From Nitrospirota bacterium (GTDB lineage Bacteria; Nitrospirota; UBA9217): a stretch of 64,000 nt of DNA. The position numbers and the translations under genes are program-made. Position 1 is the stretch's first letter; the number at the start of each line of letters is the position of its first letter. Under the pieces are notes generated by a model. It was not told the origin of the DNA. It saw only the letters and a program-made list of their open reading frames with translations, and searched no databases. Location of the stretch: positions 96,001 through 160,000 of the forward strand of contig CAWBNQ010000014.1 in assembly GCA_963790205.1 (NCBI GenBank). Direction: 5' to 3'. Shown here piece after piece: positions 42,141 through 43,865 of this stretch.

Positions 42141-42795
42141 TCACGCTGCTGCACGGCGCCGGAAATCCTGGAGGAGCCGTGTCACATCCGCATCGGTCAC
42201 CTGTCTAAAATCCTCGTAGAAATTGCCGACAGCCATGAAATCCCCGGGCATGGCCAGACAAACAAAGACGTCTACCATCCTTTGCAGTTCCGCTGCGGGA
42301 TAGGGAGGGGCAACCGGAACGGCGACTATGAGCTTCCCGACCTGTTCGCGCTTCAGCATCTCCACAGCCGCCTTCCTTCATGGTAGCGCCGGTAGCAACG
42401 CCGTCGTCCACGAGAATAACGGTTTTACTCCGCAGGTCCGCGAGCTTTTGGCCGCTTCGGTACAGCTGCCGCCGGGCGGTCTCCTCACGCTGTCGTGCCG
42501 GTCTCGCCGCGCAGATAATCCTTTGTGACTTCAACCGATGCAACAACATCTTCGTTATAGACAATGCTGCCGGTTTCGGGAATTGCACCTACGGCAAGCT
42601 CGGGCTGCCAGGGGTGTCCTATTTCCCGGACAATAAGGACGTCCAGAGGGGCTTTGAGGCGATTCGCGATCTCGGCCCCGGTGACGACCCCGCCCCGGGG
42701 AAGCGCGAGAACGAGAAAGTCGCGCTGTCCGGCATAGTCTTTGATTTTTTCAGCCAGTTGCGTTCCGGCATCTTTTTTGTCTTTGAACGTCTCAA
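42141..42795 (-). pseudogene. Phosphoribosyltransferase family protein, multiply frameshifted
   Basis: Fragments FKDKKDAG..LA, VLALPRGGV, PELAVGA, VILVDDGVATGATM, AVPVAP, AVGNFYEDFRQVTD in different frames. Confidence 0.85.
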
Positions 42796-42975
42796 TTCTC
42801 CTGATCTAATCTTATCAAATAAGCTTCTGGATCGCGATCCTTCTATACGAACAACAGCAAGTCGCGGATTATAAGTATTAATTGCTTTTCAGAAAAGTTA
42901 TCACAAAAGTCAAGCGACTAAAGTACTAACAAGGCGATCGTTCCTCGTTTCCCTGCCCCTCTTTAACATCACCAC

Positions 42976-43004
42976 TTGACAAGGTGTGGTATATTAAATA
43001 GTAA
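42976..43004 (+). promoter_or_regulatory. Sigma70-type promoter region upstream of the candidate ncRNA
   Basis: TTGACA at 42976-42981 and extended -10 TGGTATATT at 42987-42995 (alternative -10 TAGTAA at 17-bp spacing). Confidence 0.55.
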
Positions 43005-43306
43005 GGCGTTGCCGGACTGACACTGAGAAGTGTTAAACGTATCTTTAACTTTCGTTGAGGGCCTTAAGCTCCACAACCCGGCGTGATCCGGAAACGGCAA
43101 ACGGCAGTCCGTGAGGATTGTTAAAGTGCCGGTTTGCAGGTCACCAAAGATTGGAAAGCGGAAAGCCCCTGAGGCCGAAGGAGAATTTGGCGAAGGAAAC
43201 GAACCACCTCAGGATTTGCGAGAGCTGATCCCAGAAGTGATCGTGGATCTTACCGAATATCCCGAGGTTCAACGGAATGATTAAGATGCGGGTCCAAAGC
43301 AGCGCC
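43005..43306 (+). ncRNA. Candidate large structured noncoding RNA, family not recognised
   Basis: No ORF in the track; 5'/3' ends pair (GGCGTTGC/GCAGCGCC, GGACT/GGTCC, CGTATCTT/AAGATGCG, TTTCGTTGA/TCAACGGAA); several GNRA-capped hairpins; flanked by promoter and terminator. Confidence 0.72.
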
Positions 43307-43321
43307 GTATTTATTGTTAAA

Positions 43322-43365
43322 AACGAAAGCCGGCAGGGGACGAATCCCTGCCGGCTTTTTTCGTT
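43322..43365 (+). terminator. Strong rho-independent terminator (possibly bidirectional)
   Basis: AAAGCCGGCAGGG-GACGAAT-CCCTGCCGGCTTTTTT. Confidence 0.9.
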
Positions 43366-43466: not shown

Positions 43467-43865
43467 TTATGATTTCTTCTGTCCGGTCTGGGAGGCCTTC
43501 AATGCCGCCAGGTACTTGCGCTTGTTTTCGAGGACCTCGGATTTCAATACCGACGCGTCCCTGTTCACCAGGCGCTCGACCGGGCGGTTGTTCATGAAAT
43601 GCTCGCGAACGATCTCGGGCACATCGGTCTTCTGCACTCCCGAGTACCACACGCCGTCCGGATAGACAACCATGTTCGGACCGCGTTCGCAGAGACCGAG
43701 CGAGCCCGATGCGGTCACGTGGATCTCGTCGGCAAGGCCGGTTTTGCCGAGTTCGGCGCGGAGCGCTTCGAGGACTTCCTTGCTCCCCTGGTTGGTGCAG
43801 CTCGGGGCTTTCGGGTCCGGCTTCTCCTGCGTACAGAGGTAGACATGATAACGGAACGGTTCCAT
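43467..43865 (-). CDS. Thioredoxin-like (2Fe-2S) ferredoxin
   Basis: HVYLC...SC...GSLGLCERGPNMVVYPDGVWY...EIVREH; one usual Cys appears as Ser. Confidence 0.85.
   Translation of the reverse strand: MEPFRYHVYLCTQEKPDPKAPSCTNQGSKEVLEALRAELGKTGLADEIHVTASGSLGLCERGPNMVVYPDGVWYSGVQKTDVPEIVREHFMNNRPVERLVNRDASVLKSEVLENKRKYLAALKASQTGQKKS

Follow-up and report, generated by a model that had tools for sequence, protein, structure and literature searches.

The locus and its neighbourhood

The window, i.e. the whole stretch of 64,000 nucleotides that was analysed, contains between two minus-strand genes an interval (42976–43365) with which no open reading frame of 60 aa or more overlaps. The original prediction, which placed a stand-alone structured RNA in this interval, was right about the absence of reading frames and about the orientation of both neighbours. 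The left one is a phosphoribosyltransferase gene (42141–42805) that diverges from the RNA and is read in three frames; its two frame changes are due to a pseudogene or to an assembly error. The right one, a ferredoxin-like gene (43467–43865; Pfam Suc_Fer-like, E 1.5e-4, below the cut-off), converges on the RNA, and both genes lie outside it. Relatives of the phosphoribosyltransferase also flank several of the other non-A copies described below (L041, L085, L094, L446). An identical stretch of ~85 nt, probably the end of an insertion sequence, was seen at seven places of the genome (C1:606412, 804672, 293087; C3:519662, 528188, 567523, 1074035).

The RNA body, about 302 nt in length, occupies 43003–43308 of the plus strand, as outlined by the alignments, the covariation and the RNA contigs of relatives, and represents the subfamily that we call type B. 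It is preceded by an extended -10 promoter element (42987–42995, plus strand), from which a start at 43002–43003 is predicted. This part of the proposed promoter stood. The TTGACA at 42976–42981 (plus strand), which had been read as its -35 element, lies at a fixed spacing of 8 nt from the extended -10 and not 17, and therefore is not a normal -35; the promoter scan made no call at this pair of elements in the window copy. Downstream lies a bidirectional intrinsic terminator (43326–43361) with the 13-bp stem expected from the original prediction (43326–43358) and T-runs on both strands.

The folding energy of the RNA body is -117.3 kcal/mol (z -5.3), and none of 100 shuffled sequences was as stable; the minus strand of the body folded with z -3.7, and with DNA parameters z was -2.0. 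The cmscan search against Rfam 15 gave no match at the gathering score in the whole window. At E ≤ 10 the matches in the window were confined to the terminator or the flanks and were at chance level, and at E ≤ 1 there were none in six loci with other copies of the family.

Distribution of the family

The BLAST search with the stretch that encodes the RNA found relatives in 11 of 36 genomes of the same family and in none of 24 genomes from other families. The window copy is one member of a multi-copy family whose core, boxA-led member lies elsewhere in the genome, beyond the view of the original prediction: the source genome has three copies in all, and the two others, on contig C3, are 61% and 65% identical to the window copy. 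A covariance model built from 11 copies matched 55 of the 64 genomes of the host family, with at most five copies found per genome, and none of 123 Nitrospirota genomes that belong to other families. The syntenic locus beside pabB held full copies in seven of the nine genomes that the model had missed, and it also yielded copies in two genomes otherwise known only for type B. Overall, full-length copies are present in 62 of the 64 host-family genomes; of the remaining two, one (71% complete) has a 3' fragment and the other (68% complete) yielded nothing. A sequence profile of type A matched all 27 family genomes sampled. The aligned set comprises 89 copies of 229–335 nt, 51 of type A and 38 others (non-A), and 15 metagenome stretches carry further type B copies, 13 of them full length and two cut by contig ends.

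Outside the family the searches were made with sequence-led models, which may miss relatives that keep only the fold. The type A profile gave weak partial matches (E 0.003–0.045) in 6 of the 123 genomes of other families, and inspection of all six revealed coding DNA without the terminal stem; weak partial matches were also obtained in 2 of 151 genomes of another phylum. A pattern combining boxA and stem was matched in 51 of 63 family genomes vs. 86 of 337 others, and none of the 20 outside matches inspected was similar to the RNA. In a pattern scan of 11 of the 64 parts of a genome collection 2 of 118 loci were true copies, and a partial scan of viral contigs gave no true copy among 120 loci. 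A strict type A pattern had no match in viral contigs. No copies were found in phage and plasmid records.

Type A, a core gene led by boxA

Type A is present in one copy per genome in 47 of 49 genomes. Of the 51 copies, 49 are in head-to-head orientation to a pabB/trpE-like gene, the downstream gene being variable. In the type A tree, copies from one host genus tend to fall together (16 label changes, 35.9 after shuffling). An SMC-like ATPase gene (L017:11000-12907) between pabB and tmk is a constant neighbour of the locus; within the family the ATPase is 48–60% identical, and the value for one other family is about 25%.

The upstream and downstream signals set type A apart from the other copies. 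An extended -10 element was found in 50 of the 51 copies, 43–72 nt upstream in all but one. Of the 51 type A copies, 38 carry a boxA-like word no more than 60 nt upstream, and in 49 a run of at least five U residues begins directly after the terminal stem; among the 38 other copies the counts are 1 and 3, respectively. The same boxA word lies in the genome's rRNA leader, about 30 nt after the promoter, and it fits the Bacillus subtilis boxA consensus as given in the accessible part of PMC13753749. NusB and Rho are encoded in the genome, and the combination of these genes with a boxA soon after the promoter, which characterizes boxA-antiterminated transcripts, was found for type A only. From this arrangement of sequences we infer that the boxA of type A would load NusB-S10.

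The pabB locus carries tandem sets, of three copies in genome G001 and of two copies each in the source genome (G000), G002, G005 and G014, which suggests that it is the place where paralogues arise. The tandem arrays at L018:11693-12885 (G001), L114:2990-3697 (G005) and L410 (G014) are diverged, and those of G001 and G005 have a separate promoter-like element for each copy.

Type B, sporadic copies with upstream signals

Type B copies, including the one in the window, are sporadic and their neighbourhoods differ from locus to locus. In 20 of the 38 non-A copies the extended -10 lies 6–9 nt before the RNA and predicts a start at the stem, and most type B copies, as in the window, have a separate hairpin terminator. 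The word TTGAC(A) is placed exactly 8 nt before the extended -10 in all 20 loci that have both, in both subfamilies; genome-wide, the spacing has its peak at 17 nt. This word is possibly the half-site of a regulator.

A further conserved site at about -83 (42915–42930 in the window) is loosely palindromic and is kept in type B whichever way the upstream gene points. It is likely a regulator site. It also loosely resembles the sigma-54 promoter consensus, read on the minus strand. The site was not found upstream of lexA or recA, and no strong second site was seen in the genome. It forms the left edge, fairly sharp at 42915–42919, of a module common to type B copies.

No recurring partner was found among the flanking ORFs (87 and 31 scanned, of 119 and 38 listed), and four of these ORFs, at four loci, are of transposase type. 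Across genera, likeness is 72–91% among type B copies and 61–78% among type A copies from the same genomes, an order that is often reversed inside a single genus. Since type B is more alike across genera than type A of the same genomes, it has likely moved sideways between genera.

A conserved fold, predicted to be Y-shaped

Types A and B were folded separately and gave the same Y plan, in which the terminal stem P1 is followed by P2 (with a small hairpin at its side), P3 and P4 and then by a three-way junction with two long irregular arms. On the plus strand of the window P1 is formed by 43004–43012 with 43299–43307 (alignments and covariation), P2 by 43015–43018 with 43291–43295, the small hairpin P2a by 43019–43034, P3 by 43038–43045 with 43283–43290 and P4 by 43050–43058 with 43269–43277. 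The four helices by which the ends zip together had been foreseen at these positions and hold in 83–98% of alignment cells in 21 related copies; on the 5' side of the trunk (43015–43058) 83–93% of cells are paired in 21 copies. The left arm (43059–43168) and the right arm (43174–43268), both on the plus strand, are long irregular rods tipped by a GUGA-capped hairpin (43103–43122) and a GAGA-capped hairpin (43213–43230), respectively. The hairpins 43019–43034 and 43103–43122, also part of the original prediction, are paired in 88% and 89% of cells.

The inner part of the predicted fold had to be redrawn. CCG-GAAA-CGG, CCGGCGU/GUGCCGG, GGUCAC/GUGAUC (43237) and CCUGAGG/CCUCAGG are paired in only 57–73% of cells, as counted in the eight most distant type B copies, and instead of nested multi-way junctions the conserved inner fold has two long arms off one three-way junction. 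By the same count the helices 43083/43144, 43091/43135 and 43103/43122 of the left arm hold at 90, 80 and 78%. The right-arm helices hold at 56–88% each in such copies, and so the correction of this arm is less firm and leans on type A. GNRA caps, such as the original prediction had seen on hairpins of the window copy, are a trait of type B (52 of 158 predicted loops) and are nearly absent from type A (3 of 190).

The pairing is accompanied by compensatory changes in both alignments. With alignments made from sequence only, 88.0% of type A cells are paired (81.9 in shuffled and at most 42.7 in slid controls) and 54 of 89 pairs show two-sided change vs. 33.1 in shuffled data, and in type B the values are 89.2% and 40 of 103 pairs vs. 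20.2, all of them scored on the same alignments from which the structures were derived and with kin that are not independent. The pairing scores were reached by none of 500 shuffles in either subfamily. The excess of G-U over A-C cells (353:157 and 245:74) is as expected for an RNA on the plus strand. In a crude mutual-information ranking, pairs of the model make up 7 of the top 45 in type A and 3 of the top 45 in type B. The 15 metagenome copies are close relatives and added no signal (7 vs. 4.2 two-sided pairs, a value reached by 31 of 500 shuffles).

P1 has at least seven of its eight pairs in 88 of 89 copies, and its sequence is nearly fixed, so that covariation is uninformative for such an invariant helix. 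P3 is AU-rich and weakly paired in type A (71% of cells) and 93% paired in type B. The length of the left arm varies, and the short variants are made by trimming it: it is shortened in the variants of 229–266 nt overall, and in those of 229–249 nt (L053, L055, L056, L062, L089, L015, L087, L099) the trunk and the right arm were seen to be intact. A 7-nt loop at the left tip is conserved in 46 of 51 type A copies, and loop sequences differ between the subfamilies. In a simple scan (not R-scape) neither alignment showed a pseudoknot or loop-loop pair backed by compensatory change, and across the 89 copies no inner core or single-stranded segment is conserved in both subfamilies.

Presence in RNA libraries

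The stretch of the RNA or a part of it occurs in 20 of the 23 sequencing runs listed, with 13 recorded as RNA, from 11 studies. None of the listed runs contains half of the sampled words, and therefore the sequences stem from relatives. RNA contigs lie on 43002–43306 of the window copy in four of four RNA runs, which were chosen because they contain it. For the C3 locus, which was not used in picking the runs, contigs were found on both paralogues in three of four other runs, and run X20 had nothing there. In one run the summed depth reached as much as 25,095 for type A and 2,514 for the third copy, and nothing was found on the intervening gene, although such empty flanks may mean only that the genes of the relatives are too divergent. 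Taken together, the contigs, which come from metatranscriptomes of relatives, represent each of the three copy types. Strand, ends and level are not given by contigs of this kind.

The contig pieces listed for the window copy stop at 43301–43306, and a type A contig has its last base precisely at the 3' end of the stem, which hints weakly at P1 as the end of the mature RNA. In contig 22 of run X13 the 3' end of a C3-type paralogue is joined directly to the predicted start of a window-type copy (43002); this is either a close tandem arrangement in some strain or a chimera made by ligation, which would mark both RNA ends. No circular joint of the RNA ends was present among the contigs listed.

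The central proposal of a stand-alone, trans-acting large non-coding RNA and possibly a new class is supported by homologues with compensatory changes, by a promoter and terminator of its own in changing contexts, by the RNA-library contigs and by the absence of an Rfam match. In our judgement this is very probably a real, expressed family of structured RNAs.

Comparison with known RNA classes

The source genome has separate genes for 6S RNA, RNase P RNA, tmRNA and SRP RNA, and canonical 6S is present in 18 of the 19 family genomes searched. The by-eye statement that the RNA lacks the signatures of these four and of common riboswitches was upheld by motif and Rfam tests. Signature motifs for the intron, RNase P, SRP and tRNA-like tests were scored over the 89 copies: none contains the P4 consensus of RNase P, the helix-8 motif of SRP RNA (present in the genome's own SRP RNA), the T-loop and CCA of tRNA-like molecules or the core motifs of group I and II introns. 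Additionally, ARAGORN found nothing in the window, and the copies are intergenic with their own promoter. A riboswitch or 5' leader was rejected on the grounds that the downstream genes vary in identity and direction. The 6S/Ms1/CoRP rod with a central bubble does not agree with the three-way fork of both subfamilies and the paired P3 of type B.

A CsrB/RsmZ sponge was dismissed, since GGA is not enriched (7.9 vs. 7.0 and 7.8 vs. 6.8 expected), and CsrA was not found in the source genome, which is 98% complete. For retrons, omegaRNA/HEARO and bridge RNA no recurring reverse transcriptase, IscB/TnpB or IS110 recombinase was present among the flanking ORFs scanned, and type A faces pabB. OLE, ROOL, GOLLD and raiA were set aside, as the simple scan showed no covarying pseudoknots or kissing loops in either alignment. 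A profile search against the genome's 16S, 23S and 5S rRNA showed no similarity, and shared 10–12-mers are only scattered. Short likenesses seen by eye to 16S, 5S and 23S rRNA, SRP helix 8, group I/II cores and the Ro site of Y RNA did not hold.

Two known RNAs share parts of the architecture. The large (7S-type) SRP RNA is about 300 nt long and has paired ends, a small 5' hairpin and a trunk forking into two arms. The new RNA resembles it in all these respects; unlike it, the new RNA has no helix-8 motif and has far longer arms, and it exists beside a separate SRP RNA. Bacterial Y RNA, like the new RNA, has a conserved stem made of its 5' and 3' ends, with U residues after it. However, the new RNA is at least twice its size and has no tRNA-like part, and Ro60 (TROVE) is encoded in 1 of 64 family genomes and not in the source genome, so a Y RNA was rejected.

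Possible function

We consider it rather probable that the RNA is a stable scaffold or decoy, which would act by its shape on a protein machine via the near-invariant terminal stem. Action by shape is proposed because the molecule is almost fully paired and has no conserved single-stranded seed, fixed downstream gene or linked enzyme, and a protein handle because sequence conservation concentrates at the terminal stem and the side hairpin. On this model, transcription of type A would resemble that of an rRNA operon, starting from the extended -10 and passing through a boxA that would load NusB-S10 against Rho; closure of the terminal stem would bring it to a stop at the U-run, and the leader of 43–72 nt would be trimmed off. 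Tandem duplication at the pabB locus would have given rise to paralogues. Type B would have lost boxA and leader and would start with the stem; it would have acquired a separate terminator and a regulator site upstream, and a likely movement between genera would have made it a condition-controlled extra copy. The mature RNA, almost wholly double-stranded with its ends tucked in, would therefore be abundant and slow to decay, and a protein partner would meet it at the terminal stem, the small hairpin and the tip of the right arm. RNA polymerase (in the manner of Ms1/CoRP) and the ribosome are our leading guesses for this partner; the guess of a polymerase decoy is weakened by the canonical 6S that the family keeps.

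A fuller and clearly less likely version is that of a housekeeping stable RNA which one lineage would have added to rRNA, tRNA, SRP RNA, RNase P RNA, tmRNA and 6S. It would combine rRNA-type antitermination, its own terminal stem of 300-nt range as terminator, a role in the ribosome or RNA polymerase as a structural component or as a ligand for storage, and horizontally spread, condition-swapped paralogues.

The polymerase partner can be stated as a specific form of the scaffold or decoy explanation, namely as a second, forked mimic of promoter DNA that stores core enzyme or holoenzyme, and we regard this as possible but not likely. Ms1, CoRP and 6S are likewise stand-alone, lineage-restricted, abundant structured RNAs of a few hundred nucleotides; paired ends, deep RNA contigs and the AU-rich, weakly paired P3 of type A agree with this, as does the size of Ms1 (~300 nt in the accessible part of PMC11077062). 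The same part of that source proposes one type of polymerase-binding RNA per species, however, and the new RNA coexists with canonical 6S in the genome and the family. It is a forked Y and not a rod with a bubble, and the type B P3 leaves no conserved open bubble. The absence of a sequence or covariance-model match to the Rfam families of Ms1, CoRP and 6S also speaks against this possibility, and the new RNA differs from them in its several paralogues per genome and its boxA lead.

Less likely again is an RNA that associates with or mimics the ribosome under rRNA-type control, in storage, assembly or quality control. The near-universal, single-copy core gene and the promoter-then-boxA layout, which is that of the genome's rRNA leader, argue for it. 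However, the role of boxA may be no more than to protect an untranslated RNA from Rho, type B has none, and the RNA has no similarity to the genome's rRNAs, which are full length. As far as the accessible part of PMC13753749 goes, boxA is known before rRNA, suhB and CRISPR operons; unlike in those leaders, the boxA of type A precedes a single RNA of ~310 nt.

An RNA-only machine, whether a ribozyme or, in the manner of OLE, ROOL or GOLLD, a multimer that assembles itself, is doubtful. The original prediction had compared the RNA with OLE, ROOL, raiA and ribozymes, and this likeness turned out to be weak because the fold is a plain Y without a covariation-backed pseudoknot or loop-loop pair and no inner core is common to the subfamilies. 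Like OLE, ROOL, GOLLD and raiA the RNA is large, supported by covariation and without an obvious catalytic signature, and ROOL, in the accessible part of PMC12286853, likewise has no known protein partner. Purine-rich internal loops, the GNRA tips of type B, the conserved left-tip loop of type A and the lack of a linked protein gene would also fit. Contrastingly, the new RNA is smaller than OLE, ROOL and GOLLD, it is a chromosomal core gene without a phage or tRNA-island link, and its conservation lies in the terminal helix and not in a junction core; its loops differ between the subfamilies, and the short intron and RNase P motifs are absent from all copies.

An Hfq-dependent base-pairing sRNA, or a double-stranded precursor of small regulatory RNAs, is improbable: Hfq and extra Hfq-like genes are present, the 3' end is U-rich and the long helices could be RNase III substrates, but nearly all of the molecule is paired, without a single-stranded segment conserved across the subfamilies, and RNA contigs span the whole body. 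An extra Hfq-like domain pair (G000:C11:119724-120237) occurs in most family genomes and in some other families. Least probable of all is a selfish or mobile element with an RNA moved in trans, to which the varied places, cross-genus likeness and sharp left edge of type B and its few copies near transposases would point, but not the single-copy type A beside pabB with a tree that follows host genera, the absence of a linked reverse transcriptase, nuclease or recombinase and of copies in the phage, plasmid and viral collections as far as searched, or the low copy number found per genome.

Implications

Our verdict is that this family is a new class of large bacterial RNA that matches no catalogued RNA family. 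No description of it was found in the literature, as judged by titles and the beginnings of abstracts. In their accessible parts, the main texts of PMC11109978 and PMC8632094 do not mention Nitrospir*, and the readable supplement of the latter holds no match; the accessible part of the preprint 10.64898/2026.10.21.760802 does not name the RNA, although its cluster database may hold an unnamed cluster.

A boxA before a single small RNA gene and a terminator formed from ends 300 nt apart would each be notable alone. The 89 aligned natural variants, the structure model and the two regulatory designs provide a resource that can be used in vitro without culture. So far, few bacterial RNA classes larger than 250 nt are known, and those that are understood are ribozymes or parts of core machines. 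Since the new RNA occurs in nearly all genomes of its family, has diversified into paralogues and seems to be strongly transcribed, it likely does a core job in these bacteria.
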